Shown here one piece after another: positions 1 through 33,295 of a stretch of 64,000 nucleotides of DNA (position 1 is its first letter; each line of letters starts with the position of its first letter). The stretch comes from Flavobacteriaceae bacterium (GTDB taxonomy: Bacteria > Bacteroidota > Bacteroidia > Flavobacteriales > Flavobacteriaceae). The position numbers were made by a program, and so were the translations under genes. Below the pieces are notes generated by a model that was given only the letters and a program-made list of their open reading frames with translations, did not search any database and had not been told where the DNA came from. Where the stretch lies: positions 3,729-67,728 of the forward strand of contig PBJZ01000018.1 of assembly GCA_002721275.1 (NCBI GenBank), written 5' to 3'.

Positions 1-3000
1 GGTTGTAGAATTTGGTGTTATATCAGTACTTGTAACTGTTCCCGTTGTGGTAGCTAATTCTAGATTGTATGTTCCCCCTGGTGTTTCCGCTTTTAAATAT
101 ATAGCATTGTTAGTTAGATCAGGAATCGCAAATATTGACGAGTTAGAATCTAATCTTGGAACCAAGTCATTGATTATTTGAGTAATACTTGTTTGTCCAG
201 CCTGAACAGGATGATCATAATTTAATTCGTCAATTGTAACAGTTACTTTATCTCCAGCAGAAAAAGTTCCAGATATTGTAATTTTATCTTGTTGAGCAAA
301 ATCAGCGGATTCTAAAACAAAGTTTTTAGCTCCATTACTAATTTCGTAGGTGATATCAATAATATCGTTATCATTACAAACTTCCTGATTATCTGTTCCA
401 GCATCTGATGTAAGCGCAATCTTAGAATTAGGAAGAATACTAATAGCCACAGTTTGTTTTCCCGCCGGACTGCAACTTGTTCCTACAGTAGTAACATCAA
501 AAGTATAGGTCCTTGTACTACTCACTGAATCTGACGGTGATCCAGTTATGGTTACATAATTTTTATTTGTTATATCTCCTGTAACTGTGTCATCTAAAGC
601 AATTGTAGTTGTTGAGGTTAATGATTCAAAACTAAATGCCTTGCCTGGTTGGTCTGCAGTCAATATTATATTAGTACCTGAAGTTGAAGCAGTAATTGGA
701 CTAAGTCTGGTCCCTATTGAATTATTTATTTCATCTACTAATTCTTGTGCAGCTGTCTCACTTGTTATTGATGCATTTGCTATAGTATATTGATAAGAAA
801 TCCCATTAATTTTTATTGTAAATACCTGACCTGCTGGGAGGGTAGTCCCAGAAACATTTGTAGTTTGAACTTGTGCAGTAGTATAAGGTGTCAATGTTAC
901 ACCGGGAGGAAGCCCATTGAGACCTACCAAAGGAGCAACAGTAACAGCTGTAGCGGACCCTTCTACCTCAAGGCGAATTCCATCTATTTTTCCACCCTCA
1001 CATACCGCTTGAACTAATTCACCATTTGTTGTAGTTGATACTGTCTCACCAACAAACAATGTAGTTGTTATTGTTGCAGAATGATTTAATTGCTCTGCCG
1101 GAATTACAGTAATAGTGGCAGACTGAGTGGTTGAGGAAACAGAGCAGCTGGAATTTATATTTCCCATAGTTTCAACTACATATGTGTAGGTCAATGGAGC
1201 ATTAGCAGAAGGGCTTAGTCCTGATAAATCAGGAGAACCTGTAAGTGTTAATAACCCAGTTCCAGAAATATTTTCTCTTGACAAAGTATAACTAGATGTA
1301 CCATTTGAAATAAAAGGAGTCAAAGAGTATCCTTGAATGGGTCCTGCTGCCTTGGCCTCTAGAACAAGTTTCGAACCACTAGATGAAGTGGCTGACACAC
1401 TTGATGATAAATCGTTATTTATTGTTTGTACTAATCTATCAATAAAAGTAATTATAGTCTCTCCAATGACTGTTGATACAGTATAAGTCTTATCATTAAT
1501 CTGTACTCCAAATGTTTCAGAAATAGTTGCAGTAGCAGGTCCAGACCATGTTATCTCGTCAGATTGTTTTGAATCACTATAAGTTTGTGAAAGTCCAGGT
1601 GGAATCTGATCAAAATTACCATTAGTTTGAGTTGTTAAAGAAACTGCCCCACCATATACTTTAAATGAAATTGGAACAATATTAGCATTTTCACATACCT
1701 CTTGAGATGCGGTTGCTGGAGCTGTACCAAGCTCAATAACTGGTGGGCCAAGCAATGTAATTGTTCCTGTTACTGTTGCATGTGGGGTGCATGATGTACC
1801 AGTAGTCTCAATTGTATAATAATATGTTGTAGCAGTCGTAACTGCATCAGGGTCACCTGTGAGCGTAACATAATTATCATTTTCAATATCTCCCGCTACT
1901 GAGCTATCCAGTGAAGATGAATTTGTAGCAGAATTGGCATTAGTAGAAGTAGCCGTATATGAAAATGATACTCCAGGAATATCCGCTGTTAAAACAACTG
2001 TTGTACCTGATACGCCAGCAGTAACTGGACTTGTTCTATTTCCAGTTGCGGTATTAATCTGAGTTAATATACCGAGTGCAACCTCTGAATATGTTTTTGT
2101 AACAGTTGTGGAATAAGTATAATCAACACCATTAATATTTATAACAAACGAATCCCCTTGTGACATGGTTCCGGTTACCTGAACAGTCCTTACCTGAGCC
2201 TTTGAATTTGGGGTTAATGCTATCCCCGGAGGTAGTCCTGAAAAAAGATTGAGTGAAGCAGAGCTAGCGCTAACAGAGGATCCTGAAAGATCTAACCTAA
2301 TTCCAACTAATTCCTCACCCTCACATACTACCTGGTTAAGTAACCCATTAACAGTTGCACTGGTAGTTGCAAATGTAGATGAAACAATTGTTGTAGGGTG
2401 ATTAATCCTTTCTGGTGGTTTTAATTTAAATGAGCCAGTAAAAGTATCCTCATTACAAGAGTAAATATTACCGGTTGAGTTAATTGTAAAATTATAAATA
2501 TTGGTATTGTTCAATGTTACTGAAGGTGTTCCAGAAATAGTTATTATTCCAGTTCCTCTAACTGGGTTAACAGTCATATCAATGGTAGGGTCAGCTGCAA
2601 TAATTACACTTTGTGGTACTCCTATATTTGATCCTGTTACCCTTATTGTACCGCTTGCTGTAATTGTAGCTGAAATACTAGAAGTTAAATCAAGAGTAAC
2701 TGGAACTCCAACTGAACCTGTTCCCGATACCGATGAAGTTATGTTATCTATTGAAGTGCCTATTACTTTTCCAAATAACTTAAATGATCCATTACCAATA
2801 TCCATGGCTTCAACTACATCTTGAATACCAGCTGTATTATTTATTGAACTTGCAATTCCAGTTGCTATTTCAATATTAGTTGTAATAGTTGTAACAGCAG
2901 TAAATATGGCTGAACGAGCAGTATCAGTGGTTAAAGTAACAGTATAGGAATTATTAATTGCTGTTCCTTGACCAGTGATGGTAATTAACTTTACATACTG

Positions 3001-3960
3001 ATTTATTGCACTTGCTACGCCTGTTCTGAGAGTTGATGATGAGGTATTTGGTGATGCAGTATATGTAACCGTATGAGAACCACCTCCGTTAACACTTAAT
3101 GATATACTATAAGTTTCTGTTGAAGAACCAGAATTAGCACCCGAAAAACTTATTTCATCTATTTGATTTAAAGGTGCGAAATTTTGTTGCAATCCAGGAG
3201 GGATTCCTGTTAATCCAGCTAATGGTGGCACGCTGGCACCTGTAGCTCCATTAAAGACCTCAACAGTTAAATCCACAATATCCTCGCCAACACACAATTC
3301 CTGAGCTTCAGTACCTGACGCAGAAGTCTGAGTTAATAAAGACTCTGGCTCAACTATTATATATCCCGATGCTGTTCCTGGTGTACATGAACTTCCGGTT
3401 GTTTGTATAGTAAAATCATATCTTGTTGGTGTAAGAACCGGGGCAGTTGGAGTGCCATCTATTATAAATGAACCCACTCCTTGAATAGGATCTTTGGGAG
3501 TAGACATTGATAAATTTGTGGAATTTTCAAGCAAATTTATACTAAAATAAGATGCCGGATTAATTGCTGTTAATCTAATTGTACCGCTCGTTGTATCTGC
3601 ATCAGCATTAATAATTCTTAATCCATCAGCATTAATTAGGTTTGCAATAGCTTTAGCTACAGCATCTTTATCAGGTGTTCCTGTGACCACATAGTCGTAT
3701 CTCTTTCCAGAGATAAATATTTTAAAGCTTTCTGAGGCTGCTGCATTTCCTCCACCAGACACAGAAACATCATAGACCATATTTGTTGGACTGAATGTTC
3801 CTGTAACTCCGACTGGTAAACCAGTTGTTCCAGAAAGAGCTGGTACGTAGGCTCCAGTAGCTCCCCCAGTAACATTAAATGTAATTGAAACAGGTAAGGA
3901 AGTGTTTACACAAACCTCTTGAACCTCACTTCCTGCAGCTGATGTTTTAGTTAGAGTTTG
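1..3960 (-). repeat. Array of six consecutive [Ig-like + inserted module] units (~195-300 aa each). The sixth is cut by the window edge.
   Basis: The motif Q-[EAV]-[VL]-C opens each unit at residues 2938, 3144, 3467, 3677, 3908 and 4116. Each is followed by G-[LI]-P-x-G, then the inserted module, then x-I-x-G-[TS/D]-P ... Y-x-[FY]-x-[IV]-x-T-x-G-x-x-C. Confidence 0.75.
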
Positions 3961-6900
3961 ATTTGGAGGAACATTGAAAGGAATAGTAACTAATGGGGCT
4001 CCACATCCAGTTGATGTTGCAGTAACATTAACAGTACCTGAAAAATCCGAATTCCATGTTAAAACTCCAGTATCACAATTAATTACCCCAGCGGAGTTAT
4101 TATCAATGGACCATGTAATACTGTTTCCAGATCCTGGATCTGAATAAAATTGAGTTGAAGCAACAGAGCCTGGGCAACTTGGGAGGAAACTACCACCTTG
4201 TACTATTATATCAGTTGGTGTGACTGCCCTACTTGCAATGACTATGCTTTTCGTTGAAACTGGCGATGTTGTGACACCATCACAACCAATTGCAGTAGCA
4301 TTTAAATTAAAGCTTCCATGAAAACCAGAAGTCCAATCCAAGATACCCTGCTGGGTAAAAGTAGTATTTGCCTCATTATCAATAACAGTAAGGGGGCTAC
4401 CAGTTCCTGGACTAACCGAAGATAATGACCAAGTAATGTATTGATAGTCCTCAGATTGAGCAAAAAACTGAGTAGAGGGTGTAGAGTTTGTAATCTCACA
4501 ATTTGGCTGAGCTCCAGTTCTTCTGTTCCAATTTGTTCCACAAACATATGTTGAGTTTGCTACTATCAGTCCTTCATTCAAATTATAAGCAGGAGAAAAG
4601 GCGTTGTTTGGAACAGGAATCCTCTCAAATTCAACAACAAAATTTGTTCCATAATCACTGTATCCAAGATAATCTGCTGTTACATCAAGTCTAGCAGAGG
4701 TTGATCCAGCAGATATACTCGAAGCTGTAACTCCAGCGGAGCCTCTAAAAGTATGTGTAGCACCATTAATTTGATTTAAGAAACTTGTTTTAATATCATT
4801 TGCTGTCGCACTTGCAGTGGATGTGTATTCGTAACATCGTCCATTTATAGTCATTCTGTATACCTCACCAGCAGGTACATTTACTGTACCACCAGAATTA
4901 TTATCAATATATATCCTTGTTTTTTGAAATTGTTCTAAAACACCAGGTTCTGATGGAGTTGATGGAGTTTGCAACGTTGAACTCGCAGAATTTATAGTTA
5001 CTGAATTTAATGTCGCAGCAGTTGAAGAAATAGATGCAGAAATTTTAAAATTTGTAACTGATGAAATACTAGAAGTTACTTTTACGTGAGTATTTCCAAC
5101 ATTAGTTGCTGTTAAACTAAATGGAAAGCTTCCAAAGTTGGAATTAATTAATGTTGTTATTGATTCAACTGTTGCAGCTACGGTAAGAGGAGCTCCTGCA
5201 ACAGTGTATCCCGCAGTAGTTCCATTAACAGTTACAGAAACAACATCTGTAGCAACAACTGGGGCTGAAACAAAAATATGCTCCTGAATTGGATCTGCAG
5301 CAAATACTTCTATATTTTGCGTTTTGGTTCCGGATGGACCATTACACCCAAGTGTTTGAACAGATATGGTAGCAATTCCAATAAAATCAGGATCCCAAGT
5401 CACTTCTCCTGTACTAATATTAATTGTACCAGCACCCGCTGTTAAAGACCATTGTAAACCAGCTGCATTGGATTGTCCACATGCATCAAAATCAGTAATT
5501 TCTGGAGTTCCACAACTTGCTCCATTATAAATTCTAACTCCACCATCATTAATCATTGTTTCATTAGTCAATTGCATATTTCCTGAGACTCCGTCATATG
5601 ATGGGTAATTAGCTATAATATAGTTTGGAGCACCTACTGGTTGATTAACATCAATAACACCACTGATCGATGGGTCAGAACATCCTGCACACCAAATTGG
5701 TGTGATACTCATATTAGAGCCTACTGAAGTTGTTGCTGATTGGGTACTTGTGGTTGAAAATGAAACTTGAGGAGTGTCACCAGAAGAGTATGTTTCTATA
5801 GATAGAACAATACCTCTTTTTTCAGCTTCAATCGTAATTGTTGAACCTGCAACTGTTGAGGATACTAAATCAGTTGCATCCATGAACCCACTTAATTCAG
5901 TAGCAATAGCTGCTGCTCCAACTCCATTTCCTGGAGAACTAACATATGGTACTCCATTTACTACTATAGTATAAACTTCCCCTGTAGTATTTGTTGTTCC
6001 CGTTAAAGCAATTGTCGAAATATCCTGAGCCAAACTATTTTTAAATCCAATAGTATAGGGTGTGTCTTCTTTATGAGCAACTACTGTTATCGTGCCGGCT
6101 GCTGTATCGCCTGTTGCAGCAACACCTGTTGTAGCATTATTTACTCTTGCGTCATTATTTATTGCATTTGTTAGCAAGGTTACCAAACTTGCTACAGTAG
6201 CAGTAGTAGCAGTGACTGTTATGGAAAATGAATTAATTACTACTGTATATAATTCGCCTACATTGGGAGCACCAACTATATTAATTCGATCTTTTTGGTA
6301 TGATTCTGTTTTAACAGTATAAGCTAGTTGACTAGTCGGATTACCAGAAAATCTATAAAGTGTTCCTCCAATTCTACTTACCGTTATACCATTTACTGAA
6401 GCTGTAGCGTCAGCATAAGGTGGCTCTGTTGTGGCCTCATCATTAGATTTACCATTGTCAGATGGATCAATAGAAAATGGAGTAATGACAAGATCAGCAG
6501 TCCCACCAGCTATTTCGAAATCAATAGCTTGTATTGGATCTCCTCTACAAACAGTCTGATCCTTTAATCCACCACTTTGAGTAATTGTTTCAATTGGACT
6601 CACAATTACTGTTGCTGACTCAGAATCTTTAAAACAGGTTGAAGAAGTGGTTTTAATAATTGCAGGTGCTGAAATAGTTGCATTAGCGCCGCCTCCTAAG
6701 GTTCTGGTAATTGTAATTGCAGTTCCAGCTACTTTCCCTCTAATATCAATAGTACCATTTTGATAATCGTATGCTTCGACTACGTCCCTAATACCCGTTG
6801 TGGTATTGATTGCATTTGCAATACCTTCAGTAATTTTGGAATTTAATGTTACTGTTGTTAATGTTGTAAAAGTTGCCGAAGTAGTTCCTCCCGCAGCAAC

Positions 6901-9900
6901 ACTAATTTTATAGGTTTCTCCAATTGCAGCTCCGTTCCCTGAAACAGAAATCCTTTGAACGGGGTAAATATTATAGGTGTTAGTTGATCTTATTCTAAAA
7001 TATGATGTTTGAGTAAGAGGTGTTGCAGGATCAAGAGTTGTTGTATTTACATTGTTATATCCACCTGCTAGAATTGAAAAATTTTCATTATCTGTTGATC
7101 CATACCACTGATTAGTAATTGTTCCGAAATTTGGAGAATTTGATACACCCGTAGCAGATATATCAATTGGCGTCGAACCTGAGCAAATCGTTTGATTTGC
7201 AACAGTGTTTGCCTTATTAATATCATCGATTACTGAAATTAACACAGAACTTGTAGTCGCACTACATATGTTTGGAGTTGAATCAATTGCTGTCATGGAT
7301 GCGGTACCACCAGTGCCATTGGAATCTGCATACGTATAAGTGGTTCCTGAAACTTTTGGAGTTAATGTTATTACTCCATTTACATTTGCAGCGCTAACAG
7401 GTAAAGATGTATCCGCTGTAATTGATGCAACAAGGGCAGCAGCTTTTGTAGTAGTAGTTGTACCTGTTGTAACAGTCACTGCTGTTCCATTTATTATCAT
7501 TGAAAAAGCCTTTCCAGTTCCAACATCTCCAGTAATTGTTATTTGATCTATGTTATCGACAACAGAGGAAATAGCTTGTCTTCTATAATAAAGTGATGAG
7601 ATTAATGCACCAGGTGGTTGATAGGAAGCCGAAGTAGCATTTTGAATATTGGTCCAATTAATATTATTGGTTGATACCTGCCACTGATAAGTAACTGCAC
7701 CATTAACAGATGTAGCATCTTTGACACTTAATAATTGATTTGGAATAGTATTGTAACATATAAACTCAGGCATGGCAATCTGTCCAACGTCGAAAGCATT
7801 TACGGTTACTTTATGTACTTCAGAAGGAACCTCACAATTAATTACTCCTCCTGAAACTCTTTGTGTCATTCTTCTGTAGTATGAAGTTTGAGTTACAACA
7901 CCAACACTAAAGCTTACACCTGTAGCCCCAGGAATATCTTCCCAGTTACTATTATCAATTGAAATCTCCCACTGATATTCAATACCACTGGCAGGTGCGG
8001 TTGATCCTGTGACTGATAAAGCAGTTGGGACGGCTGATGGATTTGAGGGGTCATAACAAAAAACTTGGTTGTTACCACTATTTATTATTCCACCTTGTAA
8101 AGGGTCTACAGTAATAGTCCCACTAATTTGAGCTTCACTACAACCATTAAAATTAGATAAAGTTCTAACTGTATAGGTATATATTGTTGTTATTATATCC
8201 GTTGTACTTGGTGTGCCTGATATCCTGAAAATGCCACCCCCGACATAATTTCCAACCACTCCATTAGGAAGACCATCTACAACTAAAGCTGTAGGAGGGT
8301 TTACTGTTGCACTGACTGATCCTATTATATTATAAGTTATGGTTGTGATAGCAGAATTATTACAAACAGTTTGCGTACTTGTTCCTGCTGCAGATGTTAA
8401 AGTAATTGTTGAAGCAGCACTGACAGCAATCGTTCCACTTAAAGAGTCATTGACTGAACACTCATTAGCTCCTGTGGTAGAAATTGTATAGCTAAATACT
8501 TGGGAAGCTACACCAGAATTTATTGTCCCACTAATAATAATTTGATTTGTATTGGAAGTTGTTATAGAGTTAGTCATTCTAGAATTTCCTGCTGTACCTC
8601 CAAGGTTAACTCCAAACGGTACACCTAGACTCTTTGAAGTAAGCCTAATAGCATGATCCCCAATTTTAGTAACAGTAACACTTGCAGATGCACTCCCATC
8701 AATTGCAGTAAACAAACCATCTCTAATCGTTTCTGATGTGTTTCCAGTTATCGCAGCAAAAGAATACATAGTTCCATTAACCCCTATTATATACGATCCA
8801 CTAACAGCACCGGTAACTGTAACTGTATTAGATTGAGCTAATTTATTTGAATTTGCACTAACACCTGGGGGAAGAGTAAGGGGTATAGTAGGGCTTATTT
8901 GAGTGGCGCTTCCTTTTAATTCATAAGTGATAGATTCAATAGCACTTCCAGCACAAACTATTTGAGTAGTATAAGAAGCTGCTGAGGAAAGCTCGATAAC
9001 TTCTGCTGGCTCGACGGTAATAATTCCTGTTCTAACAACTTCAGGACACCCGGAAGAACCAGAACTACTAACACTATAGTTAAATATTGTAGTATATGGA
9101 ATAGTCACACTTGGAGTTCCTGTAATTATAAATTTCTTTGTAGTGCTTGAATACTGCCCTGTAACCCCAGTTGGTAATCCATCAATGACCATAGTTGGGT
9201 CAGTAACTTGAGCTCCAGTCCCTCCTCCTCCAAGAGTGTAGGTTATAGAAGATATGGCAGAGTTATTACAAACTGTCTGAGAATCAGAATTTGCAACTCC
9301 CGTATTAGTTAATACCAAAGTAGAAGATTCTTTAAGTGTTATTGTTCCTGTTAAGGAACTTGTGACTGTGCAGGTAGGACTACCTCCTGCATAAGTTGTT
9401 ATGGAATAAGTATACGTTGCAGCAGTTACACTCGAATCAAGTGTACCTTGAATACGATACCTATTTGTATTTGAAGTAACTGAAGTATTAGTCATATTAA
9501 CTGATCCAGCCCATGCATCGTAGTCATCACCAATATTAACCTTGAAAGGAGTTCCTGCAACTTTAGCAGTCAAATCAAAAGCAGTAGATCCGTTATTAGA
9601 AACATTGACAGGAACTGTTCCACTACCACTAATAGCTGCAACTAATCCATTTCTAATTTGATTTGCTGTACTTGTATTACTATCTCCAAAACTGAAAACC
9701 TCTCCATTAATAGCAAGTCTGTGTGTTCCAGTTGCAGCCCCAGAAATATTAATTGTGTTTACCTGCGCAACCTTAAGGTGATTAGCAGTAATTCCAGCAG
9801 GAAGACCCATAGTTGATGCTAGGGTTGGACTAATTGTAATTGCACTGCCAGTTAAATCATAAACTATATCGGTTATTGCTACTGATGGATCACACACATC

Positions 9901-12732
9901 TTGTGCAGCAATAGAAGGCGAAGAAACTAAAGTGATAACTTGCTCAGGAGCTACACTGATTGTTCCATTGACTGTCGCTTCTGTGCAACCACCGGAATTT
10001 CCGCTGGTTGTAATTGTATAAGTAAACTCTGTATCAGTAAGTAATGTGAGTGAAGGAGTTCCTGATATAGTCAAAATACCACCTGAAAAAGCACTTGTAA
10101 CTCCTGGAGGAAGACCATCAACAACTAAAGCAGTGGGCGAAGAAACCGTAGCACCTGTGGCACCTAAAATATCGTAAGTTATAGAGGTAATTGCGGAGTT
10201 AACACACACAGATTGACTGTTAGTAGATCCACCTGATGTTAATGAAACAGTTGATGTAGGTTTTACAGTAATAGTTCCTACAGTAGATGAATTTGTTGAA
10301 CAAATACTTGCTCCTGTAGTTGAGATTGTATATGAATAAACACCTGGAGTTTCACTCAAACTGACAGTTCCAAATACCTCAATTTTATTTAAATTAGGAG
10401 TGATATTTGAAGTGCTCATATTTGCGGACTGAGTTCCACCCAGGGTTACTGCTGAAAAAGATAATCCTGGTGTATCTGCAGTTAGATTAATTCCTGTCGT
10501 TCCGCTTGTGGATGCGCTAACTAAAGATATTCCATCATTTTGAATTAATGTAAGTAATCCGTTTCTTATATCTTGTGCAGAGCTTGAACCTGTTGCATTA
10601 AAAACATAAGCTCTACTATTAATAAATAATTTATATGAGCCTTGAGCTGCAGAAGTAATTTTTATTGTATTTACTTGAGCTTGGGTTGTTTGTAGAACTT
10701 GAAGTCCATCTGGAAGTCCAATTTCTGATACAACTGTAGGGCTTATTGTGGTTGCAGAAACACTTCCTCCACTAAGATTATAAGTAATTGTTGCAATTGA
10801 TGATCCTACACAAATATTCTGTGCTGTAGGTCCAGAATCATATGTAATAGATTCTGGAGATTCAACAATTATGAAAACCGGATCTGTATACTTTTCACAC
10901 TCATGACCCTTGTAAGTTGAAATTGCTGCTCTTCGATAATAACTGCTCTCAAATAGATTTGGTGGCTGATAATTTTGGGTGTAAACCCCGACATTACTGT
11001 AATTATCTCCATCAGTAGATTTTTCCCATCTGTATGTTAATGAAGCCGTTAATCCTAAACTAGGACTCGTACCAGTAATATTTGATGGCGCATTACCATA
11101 ACATATCGTTTGATTGGATGATAACGTTCCAGCATCTGATATATTATTTAAATCAACTGAAATATAAATCTCAGAAGAACATCCAGTCCCACTGGAACCC
11201 GTAAAGCCTGTAACTTTTATCACATTACCATTTTGAAAAGAACTAAATGTTGTAGTACTTGCGGTTGTCGTTGATCCTCCAAGAACTTGAAAGGTGTAGG
11301 ATGTTGCACCTGATGCCTGAATAACTTGTGTCGAACCCTCACATATTACAATACCCTGACTACCCTTTAATCTTTCGACTCCAATTAGAGCTCCACTGTT
11401 TGCATCAGAGGATGATGTGATTACAGAAAAAGCTGACCCGGCAGAGGGATTTGTTATAGTTAAAAATGCAGAAGATCCATCTCCTCCTCCATCAACGATA
11501 GTATAACCACTACCTGCTAAATTTGTAACCAAGGCATCGATTGCAAGATTTGCAGCAGTAATAGTATTTGAAGACGTATAAGTAGTTCCAGTTGTTGTAA
11601 TTGAAAATGTATCGCCCGCATCAATACTTCCTGAAATAGTAATTTTATATGATTCATTGTCATTAAATAAAGTAAATCCTGTTCCAGATACAGTTATGGA
11701 TGAACCAGAATCTTCAGGTGTCAAGTTAACATCGACTGATATTGGATAAGTCTGTCTTTCACATCCATTAGAATCGGTCAACTTTGCATAAATTACATAA
11801 TCTGTTTTACTATTTCTAGTAAAGTTTTGATTTGAAGTTGATCCAGTTGCACTACCATTATTAACATAAAAATTATATGAAACCCCTCCACTTGTATTAA
11901 AGTCTATCGATTCATCACTACAAATCTCCACAAATTGTGAACCAGCAATAACATTTGGAGAATCAAAATTAAGTGTTCCAGATGAGGATGCAGAGTAATT
12001 AAAAGATGTACCGGAGTTAACCCCGGTAATTCTAATTATCCTTTTGGTAGCAGCACCAGATGGTGCTCCAGCATTATTAGCATCATAAGCTGCGTCTGCA
12101 TTTATTAAAGAGGCCAATGCAGTAGCAATATTTTCAGCAGATCTTGAGGTTGATGCTGTGACTGTATGAGTATAAGTAGTACCACTTAAAGTAATAGAAT
12201 AACTCTCCTCTGAAGAGCCAGTTGTTGATGTACCTATGAGTATTTCAACTATTTGTTGTCTTGGAGTTTGACTTAAACCTGGAGTATTTAGTGGAGATGC
12301 TGTTCCTCTTGTTACAGTAATTTCCGCAACTTTAGAATCTATTATAGTTCCAGGAGAATCATCAAAATAAACCTCTGCTGTAACAGTATTCGGTCCAGGA
12401 TTGATCATTGATATAGTTTGCGTAACAGTAAATGAAGTTTGAGACTGAACATCAGAAGCAGGCATATCTTTATAATATGTTGCTGAGTTAGTTCCTATTA
12501 CTGTGATTTTTAGTGTCGCAGAAGATGTTGTTAGTGTAACTGCTGAGGTATTTGTAAAAACAGTACCAAAATCATAATTTATTGTAGGGCAAGCATCAGG
12601 AATCGTTGGAGAGGGAACTGCAACTCCTTGGAAAGAATCTATTCTAATGTCTTGTGCAAAAAGACATATCGGAGATAATAATATTATACCAATACATAAT
12701 ATGTGTTTAATAAAACTTTTCAAAATTCTCAC
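1..12732 (-). CDS. Giant secreted cell-surface repeat protein, N-terminal 4,244 codons only (the 3' end lies beyond position 1). It is a mosaic of Ig-like (He_PIG-like / PKD-like) modules and a recurrent uncharacterised ~85-95 aa module.
   Basis: I translated the minus strand manually, line by line, in the frame aligned to position 1. None of the 4,244 plus-strand triplets is tta, cta or tca, so the minus strand has no stop codon. An upstream in-frame TAG at 12744-12742 bounds the 5' end. The start is GTG 12732-12730 (alternative TTG 12741-12739), and there is no in-frame ATG before codon 90. The N-terminus reads [34 protein letters not shown], a signal peptide. The last codons in the window read ...[20 protein letters not shown]. 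The ORF is missing from the supplied track, probably because it has no stop codon inside the window. Confidence 0.9.
   Translation of the reverse strand, partial: [4244 protein letters not shown]
3973..5697 (-). other. Central Cys-rich region with three modules carrying an [IL]-[TQ]-W-S-[LI] ... G-x-[LV]-[TD]-W-x-x-x-F-x-G ... G-C-x-G signature (5308-5697, 4228-4560, 3973-4200). They are interleaved with two copies of the uncharacterised module.
   Basis: Translations: [137 protein letters not shown]. Confidence 0.6.
7555..8100 (-). repeat. Two tandem PKD-like/Ig-like modules with the Bacteroidota-typical I-C-x-G/Y ... Y-[QR]-W ... W ... Y-Y-R-R signature. Further copies lie at 10861-11127 and 6973-7221.
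   Basis: Translations: ...[10 protein letters not shown]...[42 protein letters not shown]...; ...[11 protein letters not shown]...[42 protein letters not shown]...; also ...[10 protein letters not shown]...[18 protein letters not shown]...SSYYRRAAI (residues 536-624) and ...[10 protein letters not shown]...[14 protein letters not shown]...TSYFRIRS (residues 1838-1920). Confidence 0.7.
8101..10860 (-). repeat. Three tandem protein-level super-repeats (~305 aa, ~920 nt each). Each is [Ig-like module carrying an inserted ~95 aa module] + [plain Ig-like module].
   Basis: The Q-x-[IV]-C-x-x-S-[AI]-I-x-x-I-x-Y motif recurs at residues 640/944/1257 (inserted type) and 841/1152/1454 (plain type). 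The Cys pairs are 641-811, 947-1121 and 1260-1425 in the inserted type, and 843-916, 1155-1229 and 1457-1531 in the plain type. Copies are diverged, roughly 35-45% identical by eye, and are not near-identical at DNA level. Confidence 0.8.
12655..12732 (-). other. Predicted Sec signal peptide of the giant protein (residues 1-26, cleavage after LFA)
   Basis: The N-terminus is basic (R2, K5, K9), followed by the hydrophobic core [15 protein letters not shown] and then A/QD. The call is by eye; no predictor was run. Confidence 0.6.
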
Positions 12733-12886
12733 CTGATACAACTACTCTTTTACAACCAACAATTAATAACAATTATTATTTAAAAGAGTAATTTATTCAT
12801 ATATAGTAAAGTTATGTAAATTATGTTAACAATAATCTAATTTGTTAAATCAATTATTTTATAAAATTTTACACTAATTTAATTAG

Positions 12887-13363
12887 GTGAAAAAAATTAA
12901 ACTATTATTAATTATAACTTTTTTAATTGGATGTTCAAGGACACAAGACTCTATAAATGATTTTGAAATTCTGAAAAAACTATATGAGAATACATTGAGA
13001 AACGAATATTTAATTGATTCAATTATTACATACAAAGGGCCTTCAAATTTTAAGAATATTTCTATTGATTTTGATGTTTATCAAGTTATTTATAAACAAA
13101 AAAATGGAAACAAGGGAAGTAAATTCTATACATTAACTAAAAATGAAATTTTTAGACTTGGTAAAGGCCTTAATTGTGTAATAATTAGTAATGAAAAAAG
13201 ATGGAAAAAAACAGGTGAAAGAATTACTTCATTAAAATCATGGATTATTAATAATCAAGAAGAAAATTTTATAGATAAACCAATAAATAATTTAAAATCA
13301 TTGTCACATAATTCTGATAAGGATGATCTACCTGAAAATTTAAAAAAAGTAATTTGTAACTAA
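12887..13363 (+). CDS. Small lipoprotein of unknown function
   Basis: Track ORF of 158 aa with a GTG start. The N-terminus MKKIKLLLIITFLIGC has a lipobox Cys. I recognise no family. Confidence 0.6.
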   Translation: MKKIKLLLIITFLIGCSRTQDSINDFEILKKLYENTLRNEYLIDSIITYKGPSNFKNISIDFDVYQVIYKQKNGNKGSKFYTLTKNEIFRLGKGLNCVIISNEKRWKKTGERITSLKSWIINNQEENFIDKPINNLKSLSHNSDKDDLPENLKKVICN

Positions 13364-14337
13364 ATAAATTTCATTTTTTTCATCCAATCGTCATTATAAA
13401 TTTTTCCAATATAACGACTTCCCGAGTCATGAAGTAATACAACGACAACATCATCCGGCTTTAACTTATTTTTTAATTGTATAATCCCCTTGATTGCAGC
13501 ACCGCAGGAGTTACCTGCAAATATACCCTCTTCCCTTGCAAGTTTTCTGGTATATAATGCAGCATCCTTATCTGTAACTTTTTCAAACAAATCAATTAGA
13601 TTAAAATTCACATTTTTAGGTAAAATGTCTTCTCCTATTCCCTCTGTTGTATATGGATATATTTCTTTTTCATCAAAAATTCCTGTCTCATGATATTTTT
13701 TAAATACTGAACCATAAGTATCGATACCCCAAATTTTAATATTCTTATTTTTTTCTTTTAAATATCTAGAAACGCCTGAGATTGTTCCTCCTGTTCCAAC
13801 TCCTACAACAAAATGTGTAATCTTACCCATAGTTTGCTTCCATATTTCGGGACCAGTTTGCTCATAATGTGCAACTGAATTAGAGGGGTTGTCATATTGA
13901 TTTACATACCATGAATTTGGTATTTCTTCTCCTAATTTTTTTGAAACACTATAATATGATTTAGGATCTGAAGCAGGGACATTAGTAGGACAAACAATAA
14001 CTTTGGCTCCCATGGCCTTCAACACATCAAACTTTTCCTTAGATTGTTTATCGGTTGAAACACAAATTAATTTGTACCCTTTCACTATCGCAGCCAGAGC
14101 CAACCCCATTCCAGTATTTCCGGATGTTCCTTCAACAATTGTTCCACCTGGTTTCAAAAGACCACTTTTTTCCGCATCCTCGACCATCTTCAATGCCATT
14201 CTATCCTTAACTGATGCACCAGGATTAAAAAACTCTAATTTTGCGTAAACCTTAGCCCTAATTTCACTGGTTATTTTATTTAATTTAACCATTGGTGTGT
14301 TACCTATAGTCTCTAATATATTATTTGATATTTTCAT
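13360..14337 (-). CDS. PLP-dependent cysteine synthase / cystathionine beta-synthase family enzyme (no CBS-pair domains)
   Basis: 325 aa. It has the PLP-lysine motif NPGASVKDR, plus GNTGMGLA and GVGTGGTISG glycine loops typical of the fold-type II Trp-synthase-beta-like family. Confidence 0.8.
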   Translation of the reverse strand: MKISNNILETIGNTPMVKLNKITSEIRAKVYAKLEFFNPGASVKDRMALKMVEDAEKSGLLKPGGTIVEGTSGNTGMGLALAAIVKGYKLICVSTDKQSKEKFDVLKAMGAKVIVCPTNVPASDPKSYYSVSKKLGEEIPNSWYVNQYDNPSNSVAHYEQTGPEIWKQTMGKITHFVVGVGTGGTISGVSRYLKEKNKNIKIWGIDTYGSVFKKYHETGIFDEKEIYPYTTEGIGEDILPKNVNFNLIDLFEKVTDKDAALYTRKLAREEGIFAGNSCGAAIKGIIQLKNKLKPDDVVVVLLHDSGSRYIGKIYNDDWMKKMKFI

Positions 14338-14340
14338 AAG

Positions 14341-15576
14341 TTAATATCTGATATTTTCACTTGGTGAAAATCTGTTTATTATTTTTGTTGGGAACCACAA
14401 CAAAAATAAACAAATAAAAGCCATAAATAAATTAACAAAAATCCAATCAAAAAAATCCAATTTTACAGGGGCGTAATTAATGTAGTAGGTAATTGGGTCC
14501 AGCTTGATCCACTTAAAGTATTTTTGAGAAAAATAAAATCCAAGACCAAGTATATTTCCATAAATAAGTCCTTTGGTGATTATCTGGAATCCGTTCCACA
14601 AAAATACTTTTTGAATTAAGAAATCAGTTGCACCAATTGTTTTTAAAATACCTATCATTTGTGTTTTCTCAAAAATTAGAATCATTAAAGCTGTCGCAAC
14701 GTTAACTACACCAACTAAAGTCATTATAACTAAAATTATATATATATTAAAATCGAAAAGTGAAATCCATTGAAATATATTCTCATATTTTGACCTGATA
14801 GTTATCACATCAAGGTTAGATGGTAATAAATCGTACAACTTCTTTGCTAAAAAATTATCTTTTTTCTTATCATTAATATAGACCTCAACTCCTCCAACTT
14901 GATCCTTTGACCATGAATTTATGGACTGAACCTGAGATATATCTCCAAAAATATAAATATCATCGAAATCAAAAAATCCTGAATCGTAAATTCCAACTAT
15001 TATAAATTTTCTCTGACTTGGTATTGCTTGATAATTATTTTTTTTAAAGTATATAACCACCTTTTCGTCAATGCTCACATCGAGTTTTCTGGATAATGTT
15101 TTAGAAATTAATATTTCTTTTTTTTTTTTTGTTGAAGTGTTGATAAATCTACCCTCAACAATAAAATCATTAAAATTTGAATTGATGTATGTTTTAGGAT
15201 CAACACCTTTAAAAATAATTCCCTCAAAATTAGCTTTATTCCTTATCAATCCCCCTTTGTATGCGATTCTTTGAAAACTTGATACATCGTTTAGATTTTT
15301 TAATACAGATTCTTCTTTATTTTCAAATTCAAATGGATTAGATGAAAATTGAGAATTATTATTATCAAAAGTTGAAATAATCAAATTACCATTGAAAGCG
15401 TATACTTTTTTTCCAATTTCCTCTTGGAGCCCCTTACCAGCGACTACAGATATAATTATTGCAGTAACACTCAATGTTAGAGCTAATATTGCTACTTTTA
15501 TTATTCGTGAGGAAATATTACTGTTTAAAGAATTATTATTTTTTAATGTGTTACCTAAAAAGTAAATTAAATTCAA
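14341..15576 (-). CDS. FtsX/LolC/LolE-family ABC transporter permease
   Basis: 411 aa. It has an N-terminal TM segment, a large periplasmic loop and a C-terminal 3-TM FtsX-like region (ILKTIGATDFLIQKVF...). Confidence 0.75.
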   Translation of the reverse strand: MNLIYFLGNTLKNNNSLNSNISSRIIKVAILALTLSVTAIIISVVAGKGLQEEIGKKVYAFNGNLIISTFDNNNSQFSSNPFEFENKEESVLKNLNDVSSFQRIAYKGGLIRNKANFEGIIFKGVDPKTYINSNFNDFIVEGRFINTSTKKKKEILISKTLSRKLDVSIDEKVVIYFKKNNYQAIPSQRKFIIVGIYDSGFFDFDDIYIFGDISQVQSINSWSKDQVGGVEVYINDKKKDNFLAKKLYDLLPSNLDVITIRSKYENIFQWISLFDFNIYIILVIMTLVGVVNVATALMILIFEKTQMIGILKTIGATDFLIQKVFLWNGFQIITKGLIYGNILGLGFYFSQKYFKWIKLDPITYYINYAPVKLDFFDWIFVNLFMAFICLFLLWFPTKIINRFSPSENIRY

Positions 15577-25906: not shown

Positions 25907-27013
25907 TTATTTTGTTTTTTTAATAAACTGAATAAACTTATCGAATAAATAATTTGAATCATTTGGTCCTGGCGCTGCTTCTGGATGATATTGCACAGAA
26001 AAACATTTTTTATTTTTTATTTGGATTCCAGCAATAGTTTTGTCATTTAGATGAGTATGGGTTATTATTATATCTTTATTTAATTCGGCACTATCCTTAT
26101 TGATTGCAAAACCGTGATTTTGAGATGTTATCTCTCCTTTACCTAATTGATGATTAAAAACAGGGTGATTAATTCCTCTATGACCATTAAACATTTTATA
26201 TGTCGGTATATTATTTGCAAGGGCTATGATTTGATGTCCCAAACAAATACCAAAAAGGGGTAAATTATTTTTAATAATCTTTTTTGCTAATAATTGAGCA
26301 CTCTTTAGGGGTTCAGGATCGCCAGGACCATTTGAAATAAAATAACCATCTGGCTTCCATTCCGAAAGCTCCTCAAATGTAGAATCATAAGGAAAAACTT
26401 TTGTGTAGATATCCCTTTCCGAGAAATGATTCAAGATATTTTGTTTTATACCCAGGTCTAGAGCTGAAACTTTATATTTAGCATCAGGATTTCCAAAAAA
26501 ATATGGTTTTTTTGTTGACACTTTAGATGCCAACTCCAAGCCCTCCATGGAAGGAAGCTCTTTTAATTTATTTGTTATTTCATTTATTTTATCTAACTCG
26601 GTTGTAATAACAGCATTCATTGCACCGTTATCTCGAATATAACTCACCAATGCTCTGGTATCAACATCTGAAATAACAACCTTATTATGTTTCTTAAAAT
26701 ATGAAAATAGATCAACTTTAGAGGATGGTCTGGTTTGAACATAGCTAAAATTTTTACATATCAATCCTGATATTTTGATTCCAATTGACTGAGAATCGGT
26801 GTCTAGAGTACCATAATTGCCAATGTGCGTATTTGTGGTAACCATAATTTGGCCGAAATAAGATGGGTCTGTAAAGATTTCCTGGTATCCAGTCATCCCT
26901 GTATTAAAACATATTTCCCCAAAACTACTTCCCTCAATTCCTACGGATTTTCCATAAAATTTGGTGCCGTCGGCAAGAATAACAATACCTTTTTTTAGTG
27001 CTATGTACCTCAT
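25907..27013 (-). CDS. carA: Carbamoyl-phosphate synthase small (glutaminase) subunit
   Basis: 368 aa. It has the GICLGHQ catalytic Cys and the QYHPEA motif. Confidence 0.93.
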
Positions 27014-27033
27014 AAATATGTATTACAAATTAA

Positions 27034-27066
27034 CACAAAAAAAGGATAATCTAAAATGATTACCCT
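27034..27066 (-). terminator. Rho-independent terminator candidate downstream of rplQ
   Basis: The minus strand reads AAGGGTAATC-ATTTTA-GATTATCCTT, a 10-bp stem with one G.U pair, followed by TTTTTGTGTT. It lies about 52 nt after the rplQ stop. Confidence 0.6.
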
Positions 27067-27117
27067 TTACAATTTTGCTATTTAAAAATATCTCTTTTAT
27101 TTAAGATTCAGATTAAA

Positions 27118-27594
27118 CTACTCTATAGTATTATTATTTTCATCTGTTTTTTTAACATCAGTGGTATCACTGTCACTTTTTTTCGACCTGCGTCTTCTTG
27201 TAGATTTCTTCTTTTGTTTATCTACTGAATATACATCATTAAAATCAACAAATTCAATTAGAGCCATGTCAGCATTATCTCCAAGCCTATTTCCAAGCTT
27301 AATAATCCTACAATAACCACCAGGTCTATCACCAATTTTTTTTGATATTACATCAAAAAGCACTGATACATGCTCATTACTTCTTAAAGAGCTAAATACC
27401 AACCTCCTATTGTGAGTAGAATCACTTTTTGCCTTTGTAATTAATGGTTCTATATAAATCCTTAAAGCCTTAGCCTTTGTTAAAGTTGTGTTAATCGATT
27501 TATGTTCAATTAATGAACATGCCATGTTAGATAGCATAGAAATCCTATGAGCTTTTTTTCTTCCAAGATGCATTAATTTTTTACCGTGTCTCAT
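27118..27594 (-). CDS. rplQ: 50S ribosomal protein L17
   Basis: MRHGKK..LGRK.. N-terminus, operon position after rpoA, and a basic C-terminal tail. Confidence 0.95.
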
Positions 27595-27617
27595 AATAGT
27601 AAAATTAAAGTTTATAA

Positions 27618-28610
27618 TTAATCTCGATCTAATTTATATTTAGATAAATCCATTCCAAATGAAAGGCCTTTTAATATGACTAATTCTTCAAGTTCAGTTA
27701 AAGATTTTTTTCCAAAATTTCTAAACTTCATCAAGTCATTTTTATTATATGAAACAAGATCACCAAGTGTGTCTACTTCAGCAGCTTTTAGACAATTCAG
27801 AGCACGAACAGATAAATCCATATCAATTAGCTTGGTTTTTAACAATTGACGCATATGTAATGATTCCTCATCATATGTCTCAGTTTGAGCAATTTCATCA
27901 GCTTCGAGAGTGATTCTTTCGTCGGAAAATAAAAGAAAATGGTGGATTAAAGTTTTTGCTGCCTCAGTCAAAGCATCTTTAGGGTGAATAGAACCGTCAG
28001 TAATAATCTCAAATACCAACTTTTCATAGTCAGTTTTCTGTTCGACTCTGTAGTTTTCAATAGTATACTTTACATTTTTAACTGGAGTAAAAATAGAATC
28101 AATAGCAATTACTCCTAGTACAGAATCAATATTTTTATTTTCTTCAGCTGGAATGTAACCTCTACCTTTTTCAATTGTTAATTCAAAGTTGAATTGGACT
28201 GCTTTTTCTAAATTACAAACAACCTGTTCTGGATTTAATATTTGAAACCCGGAAATAAATTTTTGAAGGTCTGCTGCTTTAAGCTGGTTTTGTCCTGAAA
28301 TATTAATTTTTACTTTTTCATCTTCAACATCATCAATTTGTCGTTTAAATCTAATTTGTTTTAGATTGAGAACGATCTCAGTAACATCCTCAACAATACC
28401 AGGGATAGTAGAAAATTCGTGATCAATTCCTTCTATTTTTATAGAAGTTATTGCGAAACCTTCCAAAGATGACAAAAGTACTCTTCTGAGAGCATTACCG
28501 ATAGTTAATCCATATCCAGGTTCCAAAGGTCTAAATTCGAATTTTCCTTCAAAGTCTGAAGAATCAATCATAACTACTTTATCGGGTTTTTGAAAATTTA
28601 ATATTGCCAT
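27618..28610 (-). CDS. rpoA: DNA-directed RNA polymerase alpha subunit
   Basis: 330 aa. It has the [20 protein letters not shown] motif and a C-terminal helix-hairpin-helix (SVRALNCLK). Confidence 0.97.
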
Positions 28611-28617
28611 AATTTTA

Positions 28618-29223
28618 TTATTTTGAGTATAGTTCTACAATTAGTTGTTCTTTAATATTTTCTGGGATCTGAATACGTTGTGGGACTGAAACAAACGTCC
28701 CTTTAAGTGAGTCAATATCCCATGTAAGCCATTCATATGTACTTGTATTTTTTTCTATTGAATTCTTAATCACTTCAAGTGTTTTTGATTTTTCTCTTAC
28801 CCCAATTATATCACCGGGTTTTAATTGGTATGAAGGAATATTAACTACACTATCGTTAACAGTAATATGTCGATGTGAAACCAACTGTCTTGAACCTCTT
28901 CTTGAAGAAGATAACCCTAATCTGAAAACAGTATTATCAAGACGAGACTCACAAAGTTGCAATAATACTTCTCCAGTTACGCCTTTTGATCTATTCGCTT
29001 TTTCAAAAAGATTTTTGAACTGTCGTTCTAAAATACCATATGAATATTTTGCTTTCTGCTTTTCCATAAGTTGGATTGCATATTCAGATTTCTTTCCTCG
29101 TCTACGGTTATTTCCATGCTGTCCAGGAGGATAGTTTCTTTTCTCAAAGGACTTATCTTCACCAAAAATAGGCTCTCCGAACTTTCTAGCAATTTTTGTT
29201 TTGGGACCTGTGTATCTTGCCAT
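28618..29223 (-). CDS. rpsD: 30S ribosomal protein S4
   Basis: MARYTGPK... N-terminus, 201 aa, correct operon context. Confidence 0.97.
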
Positions 29224-29243
29224 TATTATATTTTATTTTAAAA

Positions 29244-29627
29244 TTAAACACGTCTTCTTTTTGGTGGACGACAACCATTGTGAGGTTGAGGAGTTACATC
29301 AACAATTTCAGTAACTTCGATACCATTATTATGTAAAGTTCGTATAGCAGACTCTCTGCCATTACCAGGGCCCTTTACATATACTTTTACTTTCCTAAGC
29401 CCTGCTTCTTGTGCCTGTTTGGCACAATCTTCGGCAGCAGTTTGTGCAGCGTATGGTGTATTTTTTTTTGAACCTCTAAAACCCATTTTCCCTGCTGATG
29501 ACCAGGAAATGACCTCACCCTTCATATTTGTTAATGATATTATAATATTATTAAAAGAAGCATTAATATGAGCTTGCCCTGATGCCTCAACTAAAACCCT
29601 TCTTTTTTTAGAAACTGATTTTGCCAT
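29244..29627 (-). CDS. rpsK: 30S ribosomal protein S11
   Basis: 127 aa with the ...[13 protein letters not shown]-terminus. Confidence 0.97.
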
Positions 29628-29639
29628 AATAAATTAAGT

Positions 29640-30014
29640 TTATTTAGTTACTTTCTTTTTGTTAGCTACTGTTTTCCTTTTTCCTTTTCTTGTCCTCGAA
29701 TTGTTTTTGGTTCTCTGTCCACGAAGAGGAAGTCCTATTCTGTGACGAATACCACGGTAACAACCAATGTCCATTAATCTTTTAATATTAATTTGGTTTT
29801 CAGACCTTAATTCTCCCTCAATTTTAAAACCACCGACGACATCTCTAATTCGACCTGTTTCTTCATCAGTCCATTCTGCAACTTTAATTTCTTGACTAAC
29901 CTTAGCTTTATTTAAAATTGAAGAAGCCCTGCTTTTCCCAATACCAAATATGTATGTTAATGCAATAACTCCTCTTTTCTGTTTGGGTATATCAACCCCT
30001 GATATTCTTGCCAT
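29640..30014 (-). CDS. rpsM: 30S ribosomal protein S13
   Basis: [10 protein letters not shown]... N-terminus, 124 aa. Confidence 0.97.
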
Positions 30015-30017
30015 AAT

Positions 30018-30134
30018 TTAACCTTGTCTTTGTTTGAATCGAGGATTCTTTTTGTTAATAACGTACAAAGTACCTTTTCGTCTTACAATTTTGCAATCGG
30101 CACTCCTTTTTTTTACTGATGTTCTTGTTTTCAT
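30018..30134 (-). CDS. rpmJ: 50S ribosomal protein L36 (38 aa; not in the ORF track because it is too short)
   Basis: Manual translation of the minus strand gives [38 protein letters not shown]. It occupies the canonical infA-rpmJ-rpsM slot. Confidence 0.9.
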
Positions 30135-30154
30135 TTAATTTTTTTTCTTTAATA

Positions 30155-30370
30155 TCAAAATCTGTAAGTGATCCTAGCCTTTGATAAATCATACGGACTC
30201 ATTTCTAATTTTACCTTATCTCCAGGTAATAACTTTATGTAATGCAATCTCATTTTTCCAGAGATATGCGCTGTAACCACATGACCATTTTCAAGCTCAA
30301 CCCTAAACATAGCGTTTGATAATGCCTCAATTATTTTACCTTCTTGTTCTATTGCTTCTTGTTTGGCCAT
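30155..30370 (-). CDS. infA: Translation initiation factor IF-1
   Basis: 71 aa with ...[18 protein letters not shown]...I..GD.V..E.SPYDL.K.RI.YR. Confidence 0.97.
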
Positions 30371-30374
30371 GTAT

Positions 30375-31739: not shown

Positions 31740-31744
31740 CTATA

Positions 31745-32197
31745 TTATATAATAATTGCCTCTCCACCTGCGTTTTCAATTGCTTTTTTTGCAGATGATG
31801 TAAACTTATGGGCAGAAATTTTCAATGAAATATCTATTTTTCCTCTTCCCAGAATCTTAACAAGATCACTTTTACGGGCTAATCGGTATTGAATAAATTC
31901 TTCAAAGGAAATTTTCTTCTTAATTTTTTTTGATTCAACAAGCTTTTGAATTGTATCAATATTAATAACCTTATATTCTTTTCGATTTATATTTTTGAAT
32001 CCAAACTTTGGTACACGTCTTTGGAGTGGCATTTGACCACCTTCAAAACCTAATTTCTTTGAGTATCCGGACCTTGATTTGGCCCCTTTATGTCCTCTTG
32101 AAGCCGTTCCGCCTTTTCCTGATCCTTCACCTCTACCTAATCTCTTATTGTTTTTTTTAACAGAGCCTTCAGCAGGCTTTAAATTATCTAAACTCAT
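31745..32197 (-). CDS. rplO: 50S ribosomal protein L15
   Basis: 150 aa with the Gly/Arg/Lys-rich N-terminus LKPAEGS.K..KR.GRG.GSG.GGT. Confidence 0.95.
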   Translation of the reverse strand: MSLDNLKPAEGSVKKNNKRLGRGEGSGKGGTASRGHKGAKSRSGYSKKLGFEGGQMPLQRRVPKFGFKNINRKEYKVINIDTIQKLVESKKIKKKISFEEFIQYRLARKSDLVKILGRGKIDISLKISAHKFTSSAKKAIENAGGEAIII

Positions 32198-32207
32198 AAA
32201 CTTTTAT

Positions 32208-32387: not shown

Positions 32388-32400
32388 TATAAATAATAAT

Positions 32401-32925: not shown

Positions 32926-32932
32926 AATATAA

Positions 32933-33283: not shown

Positions 33284-33295
33284 ATTAAATATAAA

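Follow-up and report, generated by a model that had tools for sequence, protein, structure and literature searches.

The stretch of DNA analysed here (referred to as the window) is 64,000 nucleotides (nt) long, and comes from contig PBJZ01000018.1 of the Flavobacteriaceae bacterium assembly GCA_002721275.1. It begins with a very large gene on the minus strand, in whose product one module of about 85 residues is found many times over. The initial annotation could not match this module to any domain family, and proposed it as a candidate new one. The question raised by the locus is what the module is, how it is built into its protein, and what it might do there. The explanation that we consider the best, and as a whole reasonably probable, is that it is an insertable relative of a phage tail sheath domain, carried by a rod-like protein that would be exported via a type IX secretion system (T9SS), with the modules standing out from the rod as lateral knobs.

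The giant reading frame and its repeated module

The gene is an open frame of 4247 codons on the minus strand, which runs from nt 12741 to nt 1 and leaves the window at the start of the latter. It encodes the N-terminal 4247 amino acids (aa) of a giant, apparently secreted protein (nt 1-12741), and is supported both by the open frame and by a colinear ortholog in the genome SAT168, described below. The candidate start codons are TTG at 12741, GTG at 12732 and TTG at 12723. Read from the translation, the N-terminus is hydrophobic and resembles a signal peptide, ending in ...CLFAQ (KSFIKHILCIGIILLSPICLFAQ), and the protein is enriched in T, S, G, N and A.

The initial annotation listed 17 copies of the module. 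All 17 pairs of coordinates lie in the giant frame on the minus strand, and the translations agree with the sequences quoted for them. A hidden Markov model (HMM) built from the modules, as was proposed there, retrieves all of the copies. When each module was scored with a profile made from the remaining 16, every one of the 17 was found, with scores of 20.2-61.3 bits (E values of 3e-8 to 5e-21), compared to a maximum of 6.8 bits for 100 block-shuffled giant proteins in which local composition was kept. Because these leave-one-out scores are far above those of the shuffles, the repeat is real and goes beyond chance or composition: a module of approximately 85 residues is repeated along the giant protein.

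The copies have diverged considerably. Pairwise identities are 15-38% (about 25%), and there are no invariant or nearly invariant columns, either among the 17 copies or among 73 diverse members of the wider family. Conservation is confined to glycines and the hydrophobic core. For this reason, and because no enzyme or lectin family was matched, a role as an enzyme or lectin was considered but dropped. The modules had been described as essentially free of cysteine, which holds true: there is one Cys in 1565 module residues, compared to 50 in the 2682 residues elsewhere.

Fold and relatives of the module

AlphaFold2 was used to predict the structure of module 3 (aa 689-770, nt 10432-10677, minus strand, modelled as aa 688-769), with an alignment consisting of the 17 internal copies only. 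The prediction was confident (predicted local distance difference test (pLDDT) 89.7, predicted template modelling score (pTM) 0.80), and has three strands, a 14-residue helix and then three more strands. The order is the one that had been predicted from the sequence, namely three strands, a helix and two strands, except that the model has one more strand at the C-terminal end. The suggestion of a compact α/β unit that differs from the immunoglobulin (Ig)-like domains around it also stands, since the predicted β3-α-β3 unit is independent and is not an extension of Ig strands.

Comparison of the model with the PDB using Foldseek gave as the best match the tail sheath of cyanophage A-1(L) (8kee), with a TM-score of 0.87-0.88 and a root-mean-square deviation of 1.4 Å over 82 columns, at 23% identity. 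The next matches were a Bas63 baseplate entry (9ndy) and tail or sheath structures of PhiTE, Milano and Mu. Sheath proteins as a group match with TM-scores of 0.7-0.88, whereas the outer domains of flagellin and FliD score lower, at 0.4-0.67. Among the predicted viral structures in BFVD, the fold is shared by sheath proteins, baseplate J/gp47 proteins, tail tubular B/knob proteins and other virion proteins. The predicted module therefore has the fold of the solved sheath domain of the PF17481 type. In the Mu structure, the sheath 'domain III extends outward', and it is the structurally divergent domain among sheath proteins (PMC11915804).

The relationship can also be seen at the level of sequence profiles. 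Three profiles were used, namely A1, made from the window modules only; A2, made from the 73 diverse family members; and A4, made from 14 non-redundant Mu-like sheath domains excised from IMG/VR sheath genes, 11 of which are PF17481 hits. In the PDB sequence set, A1 on its own matches aa 106-164 of the Mu sheath with an E value of 0.013. A2 matches solved phage tail proteins, in each case at about residues 84-170, with E values of 2e-7 to 1.6e-3: the best is gp76 of 9zdk, which is unnamed (2e-7), followed by the Milano sheath (5.5e-7), the tail sheath protein of 9hz7 (6.8e-7), Phi92 gp130 (8e-7), Mu (1.5e-4) and PhiTE (1.6e-3), with A-1(L) further down at 0.012. The matched region in Mu gpL is Phage_sheath_domII (PF17481, aa 99-203, 48.4 bits), and Mu-like sheath domains reach up to 39.6 bits with A1. 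Aligned with hhalign, A1 and A4 match with a probability of 97.1% and an E value of 7e-11 over 75 of the approximately 83 module columns, and A2 and A4 with a probability of 97.7%. The controls were clean: Ig domains of the same protein gave 0.2-0.4%, and 40 column-shuffled sheath alignments gave at most 0.3%, with scores no higher than 11.7 compared to 57.6 for the real alignment.

We conclude that the module, as placed by sequence profiles and a predicted structure, is a highly diverged cellular member of the superfamily of Mu gpL-type outward sheath domains, and a remote branch of PF17481. The sheath domain (PF17481, Mu gp39 'domain III', 8kee) has the same β3-α-β3 fold as the module, and the two have in common the motifs I-x-[IL]-x-G, G-x-x-x-x-Y-[IV]-x-G, the helix T-x-x-x-[IV]-A-x-x-L-x-x-x-I-N, V-[TS]-A and [IL]-x-L-T-[AS]-x-x-x-G. 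Both are insertions that come to lie at the exterior of an elongated assembly. Missing from the module is the ...DVRxNYY segment, by which the sheath domain is extended at its C-terminus. A further difference is that a sheath protein has one copy per chain, whereas the window protein has at least 18, which are held by Ig-like hosts in a cellular protein that is most likely a secreted adhesin.

None of this is evident from curated libraries, which fits the initial annotation, where the module could not be assigned. Pfam-A and NCBIfam give nothing for the module on the whole protein, and searches with the isolated modules (the 17 and the 73) give inconsistent matches even at E values of up to 1-10. 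The PF17481 HMM itself finds nothing on the whole protein (E≤1), in the 17 modules (E≤10) or in the 73 family members (E≤1), so by Pfam's own threshold the modules are outside PF17481. The core sheath domains Phage_sheath_1 and Phage_sheath_1C were not detected in the giant protein by the Pfam scan; the hosts there are Ig-like domains.

The family is nevertheless large. When 1.84 billion cluster representatives were searched exhaustively with a profile, 1792 proteins were found at E≤1e-3, counted as clusters at 50% identity, with 290 at E≤1e-10. Within the best 150 hits there are 76 shorter proteins, and the domains that these contain are mostly flagellar (Flg_bbr_C in 24, FlgE D1 in 23, FlgE D2 in 16, and flagellin N and C domains in 4); a phage cement and a Baseplate_J domain occur once each, and cadherin-like and Big domains as singletons. 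The FlgE-like proteins hold two or three modules in the central region of the chain, and one of them (P0021) has three modules, with an E value of 1e-33 for the protein. In hooks and flagellins, this central region forms outer domains that match the module profile strongly and are exposed on the surface of the polymer. These proteins polymerise via conserved terminal helices, which distinguishes them from the window protein, a single giant chain with Ig-like hosts.

The top-scoring relatives are giant repeat proteins. Two proteins with module arrays are labelled 'phage tail sheath gpL-like' by IMG, so the resemblance had already surfaced in automated annotation. The giant repeat proteins of Proteobacteria carry the same module in up to about 26 copies, as in QVL45097.1 (P0004, from a Methylophilaceae metagenome-assembled genome (MAG)), which scores 1152 bits against the window-derived profile. 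The proteobacterial arrays consist of head-to-tail copies that recur every 91 aa or so, many of them identical, and are accompanied by cadherin/VCBS-like parts. The copies in the window, by contrast, are old, with about 25% identity; each of them is conserved, and most sit inside other domains. The array of QVL45097.1 occupies aa 497-3203, falls into two blocks that repeat each other, and has been amplified recently.

A word-indexed search of 5.8 billion proteins was much less productive: the module alignment retrieved three fragments of the same gene only, the isolated Mu gpL domain one fragment, and the Ig+module unit 11 unnamed metagenome fragments. Literature searches for PF17481, for COG4386/gpL-like proteins and for a structural link from hooks to sheaths found nothing relevant among the papers searched, and no description of the resemblance.

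Two other identifications of the module can be weighed against these results. That it represents a domain family and fold that are truly new, with no link to any described one, would fit the silence of Pfam-A and NCBIfam and the fact that the word-indexed search returned only fragments of the same gene. We regard this as extremely improbable. The initial annotation had itself proposed that a match of more than 95% probability over the whole module would refute a new family, and the hhalign probability to PF17481-type domains is above this, with clean controls; there is also the structural match to a solved sheath (TM-score 0.87), the agreement of A2 with several solved tail proteins at the same region, the 1792 clusters and the gpL-like names in IMG. 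The claim of a new family fails because both the fold and the superfamily are already known. It is less far-fetched, but still very unlikely, that the repeats belong to the Flagellin_IN family (PF07196) and that the likeness to sheaths is secondary. Flagellin_IN is the commonest Pfam match of isolated modules, many hook proteins and flagellins are in the family, and outer domains of flagellin and FliD are in the Foldseek list. However, these Pfam matches are weak and limited to a minority of modules, namely one of the 17 (E value 0.26) and seven of the 73 (best E value 0.0037), and the flagellin and FliD structures fit clearly less well than the sheaths do.

A false lead of a new fold is thereby replaced by an assignment, as a remote relative of the outward domain of phage tail sheaths. 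The domain family extends far beyond its Pfam model, and includes many hook proteins, flagellins and several kinds of giant adhesin. A new or widened model, or a clan together with PF17481, would annotate thousands of regions that are now blank.

Insertion of the module into Ig-like domains

The architecture of the protein was analysed using a second HMM, made from three uninterrupted Ig-like domains of the giant protein with the pattern QxVC...GLPxGV...ISGTP...YxYTIxTxGxxC...GTIxV. An example of an uninterrupted domain of this type is found at aa 830-932 (nt 9946-10254, minus strand; HMM positions 2-105, E value 2e-50), and has no match in Pfam. The Ig HMM also detects half-domains on either side of modules. 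When the modules were removed in silico, a full-length Ig match was obtained in five cases. Without module 3, the match covers HMM positions 6-105, compared to 6-68 in the intact sequence. Removal of module 4 (aa 993-1073, nt 9523-9765) gives a match to positions 3-103, and removal of module 5 (aa 1303-1384, nt 8590-8835), whose host has its C-terminal half at aa 1396-1441, gives a match to positions 3-104. The cleanest case is module 12 (aa 2988-3074, nt 3520-3780). Here the N-terminal half of the host (aa 2929-2989, nt 3775-3957, QxVC...GLPxGV) matches Ig HMM positions 3-63, and the C-terminal half (aa 3089-3132, nt 3346-3477, IxGTP...YxFTIxTxGxxC...GxIxV) matches positions 60-105; after removal there is a single match to positions 2-105, with 43.4 bits compared to 31.5 when intact. 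The fifth case is a pair of modules at aa 3193-3384, without which the match again covers positions 2-105, with 50.9 bits compared to 27.4.

At least five copies, as judged by these splices, are inserted into an Ig-like β sandwich at one fixed loop, between GLPxGV and IsGTP. Four further copies have recognisable Ig halves alongside them, namely modules 15 (aa 3516-3601, nt 1939-2196), 16 (aa 3726-3810, nt 1312-1566), 17 (aa 3957-4045, nt 607-873) and 18 (aa 4150-4233, nt 43-294), with the Ig HMM locating halves on either side of modules 16 and 17. All of the modules named so far, apart from the pair, are supported both by the module HMM and by the leave-one-out scores, as are those described below, for some of which the scores are given.

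Seven Ig+module units can be aligned, and have 13 invariant positions. In all seven there are two invariant cysteines, one in each half of the Ig domain (QxVC and TxGxxC), for example at aa 2944 and 3119 in the unit at aa 2926-3133. These may form a disulfide that clamps the split halves together across the insertion. AlphaFold2 prediction of the same unit gave a pLDDT of 82.9 and a pTM of 0.64, with confident strands on either side of the module. Foldseek with this two-domain model did not identify the type of the Ig host, matching only generic pilin and adhesin β sandwiches with TM-scores of about 0.2.

The pair of modules requires a correction to the earlier list, where nt 2728-3165 was described as a single, expanded copy. 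It is in fact two modules, one nested in the other, and the total for the window is therefore 18 rather than 17. The outer one, module 13, begins with aa 3193-3248 (nt 2998-3165, HMM positions 1-48) and ends with aa 3351-3384 (nt 2590-2691, positions 49-80), and so reaches nt 2590, past the earlier limit of 2728. Between the two parts is module 14, which is complete (aa 3251-3337, nt 2731-2991, 54.0 bits, positions 2-81). When the inner copy is spliced out, the outer module, which is otherwise hit as two fragments (10.6 and 11.7 bits), gives a single full-length hit of 31.8 bits (positions 1-79); the splice point was optimised, which inflates this score slightly, although the jump is still large. 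The inner module lies in the loop between the helix and strand 4 of the outer module, which is the same loop that varies in length among other copies. Because the nested pair itself splits an Ig-like domain, aa 3134-3442 form a nest of three levels, with a module within a module within an Ig domain. The N- and C-termini of the module are probably close together, because it occurs inserted in loops of other domains.

The remaining copies are found in other surroundings. Module 1 (aa 163-255, nt 11977-12255) scores 58.5 bits with the HMM and 38.6 bits in the leave-one-out test, and module 2 (aa 364-446, nt 11404-11652) scores 62.5 and 32.5 bits. Module 6 (aa 1730-1810, nt 7312-7554) follows the ...YYRR strand of a second type of β sandwich, and module 7 is at aa 1927-2017 (nt 6691-6963). 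Modules 8 (aa 2149-2237, nt 6031-6297) and 9 (aa 2240-2321, nt 5779-6024) are in direct tandem. Module 10 had been called degenerate, but is complete once its N-terminus is extended to aa 2486 (aa 2486-2573, nt 5023-5286; 41.1 bits over HMM positions 4-83, and 20.2 bits in the leave-one-out test). Module 11 (aa 2613-2702, nt 4636-4905) has enlarged loops and contains the only cysteine found in a module, at aa 2636.

The second type of β sandwich has the motif C...YQW/YRW..S.D...W..I.GAT...Y....YYRR....C...V.V and recurs in the protein (aa 536-627 and 1548-1729, at about nt 10860-11130 and 7555-8100 on the minus strand); Pfam matches none of it. By eye, modules 6 and 7 appear to interrupt this type (YQW...YYRR...C...V.I.V) before its last strand. 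An HMM made from two YQW...YYRR sequences matched only the stretch ahead of the module, and was not extended by splicing out module 6 or 7. Another domain type is represented by the Cys-rich segments between modules at aa 2322-2487 and 2707-2935 (about nt 3960-5020, minus strand), with the motif W(S/T)L...G.I...TG.(V/L)TW...F.G...(I/V)...T.GC.G, for which Pfam gives only a weak match to Big_2. When the whole protein and ten inter-module segments were searched against Pfam and NCBIfam, the only near-hit was Ig_7 (PF19081, which is CHU_C-associated), below its cut-off, at aa 256-364.

In the identity of the module and in this architecture we have high confidence. The domain acts as an insertion cassette, and the window provides a clear example of a domain within a domain within a domain. 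A broader and much more tentative suggestion is that the cellular branch, a large family in several phyla (hooks, flagellins and giant adhesins) that curated libraries do not model, is a dedicated, insertable surface cassette, whose spread, inside a gene or from one gene to another, occurs by insertion into loops and not by tandem duplication. If this is true, then the three-level nest is a snapshot of such spread, and phage sheaths, flagella and adhesins have exchanged one building block of their outer surfaces.

The ortholog, the secretion system and the role of the modules

A scan of genomes found one relative of the giant protein. It comes from the MAG 'Flavobacteriaceae bacterium SAT168' (contig PATA01000018.1) and matches aa 1254-4247 of the window protein in colinear order, with 86.9% identity over 2994 aligned residues and a single indel of one residue. 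The ortholog extends about 2260 residues further and contains five more modules (L002 9273-15764), so that the full protein would carry about 23. Its C-terminal part contains a SprB repeat (PF13573, 37.7 bits, cut-off 28) as well as a PKD-like domain, and it ends with a CHU_C signal domain of the T9SS (PF13585, 28.0 bits, cut-off 27). The next open reading frame (ORF), which encodes 338 aa and starts 2 nt past the stop codon, is a PorP/SprF protein (TIGR03519, 90.9 bits, cut-off 90.55), and is followed by a gamma-glutamyltransferase gene.

This arrangement is typical of type B substrates of the T9SS, which are known or predicted adhesins, and which typically have a PorP/SprF gene directly downstream (PMC12618676). 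They need this downstream shuttle for secretion and placement (PMC12618676). The host protein is most likely a SprB-like T9SS substrate and surface adhesin of roughly 6500 aa, because the ortholog has SprB repeats and a putative type B signal domain, and then a PorP/SprF gene. It would share its giant size, SprB repeats, CHU_C signal and downstream PorP/SprF gene, as seen in the ortholog, with SprB of Flavobacterium johnsoniae and other type B adhesins, as well as the signal-peptide-like N-terminus seen in the window protein. It differs from SprB in that the 4247 residues in the window consist of Ig-like domains and sheath-like modules, with no SprB repeats among them in the Pfam scan.

Selection was compared using this one ortholog pair, for which the synonymous divergence (dS) is about 1. 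Identity is 86.9% in the modules and in the scaffold alike. The ratio of nonsynonymous to synonymous divergence (dN/dS) is 0.085 for the modules and 0.083 for the scaffold, with single modules ranging from 0.03 to 0.21, and indicates purifying selection on both. Since selection on the modules cannot be distinguished from that on the scaffold, the module copies are old and individually conserved, with fixed number and order. The initial annotation had suggested that the variable sequence between conserved positions would suit a diversified binding surface, but this single comparison lends it no support. The data would suit either a structural role or knobs that each keep a fixed partner of their own.

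On the basis of these results, the following picture may be proposed. The T9SS would export the giant protein to the cell surface, where the PorP/SprF partner would hold it as a long rod of Ig-like domains. By analogy with their relatives on sheaths, hooks and flagellar filaments, the modules would project laterally from the rod. They would be non-catalytic knobs, because a conserved polar motif is lacking. The copies differ from each other (at about 25% identity), whereas between species each one is conserved. Each knob could therefore offer a surface of its own that stays fixed, which would serve to adhere to substrata or partner molecules, or to pack laterally and so stiffen the filament.

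The main rival explanation is that the modules are passive spacers or stiffeners, which would add bulk and rigidity to the rod by packing, for example knob to knob or knob to Ig domain, and bind no ligand. Outer domains play such a part on some flagellar filaments and hooks. It accounts well for conservation among the copies being confined to core residues, and for the equal dN/dS of modules and scaffold. The single indel in about 3000 aligned residues means that the architecture is fixed, and the domain is on the exterior of the polymer in sheaths, hooks and flagellins. Adhesion is favoured by the fact that the type B substrates of the T9SS are adhesins, either known or predicted (PMC12618676). 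In phage A-1(L), an insertion domain of the baseplate wedge holds the long tail fibre (PMC10966104); that domain may share the module's fold, and J/gp47-type wedge proteins of other phages are among the fold matches of the module. The data do not separate the two readings. We consider purely passive spacers unlikely, and put the adhesive function of the knobs at about evens.

Several points weigh against the picture of a T9SS-exported rod with sheath-related knobs. No Pfam model, including PF17481, gives a reportable score for the modules, and the assignment depends on profile-profile alignment and on comparison with a predicted structure. The closeness of the module termini is deduced from the insertions and not from model coordinates. 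The C-terminus, the T9SS signal and the PorP/SprF gene are seen only in the 87% identical MAG ortholog, since the gene is cut off at the edge of the window; the scores for CHU_C and PorP/SprF barely exceed their cut-offs, and TIGR04131 and other NCBIfam models miss the C-terminus of the ortholog. Finally, the equal dN/dS argues against a rapidly diversifying recognition surface, and suits a purely structural role equally well.

What is new here is a matter of degree: a large cellular branch of a known superfamily that was missed by curated models, 18 copies (about 23 in full) in a probable T9SS adhesin of a flavobacterium, and insertion in an Ig loop, together with a nest. A marine flavobacterial protein of roughly 6500 aa, which has no curated annotation and is most likely a T9SS adhesin, is built largely from this module. 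For the biology of gliding and adhesion, this provides a testable picture in which a SprB-like filament is a rod that bears knobs on its sides.

The neighbourhood of the gene was also inspected. Roughly 150 nt separate the giant gene from a divergent ORF of 158 aa (nt 12887-13363, plus strand), which has no Pfam match. Beyond it, on the same strand as the giant gene (nt 13360-15576), are genes for a pyridoxal phosphate-dependent enzyme and a permease of the FtsX/MacB type, which are housekeeping genes and do not resemble sprC/sprD. At nt 27000-43900 there is a run of about 25 short ORFs, all on the minus strand, with an ORF of 708 aa (nt 40840-42966) toward one end. This run looks like a cluster of ribosomal protein and elongation factor genes, in which case the window would be chromosomal. 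The GC content is about 0.33-0.35 in this run and 0.36-0.38 in the giant gene, compared to 0.26-0.31 in most of the remainder.

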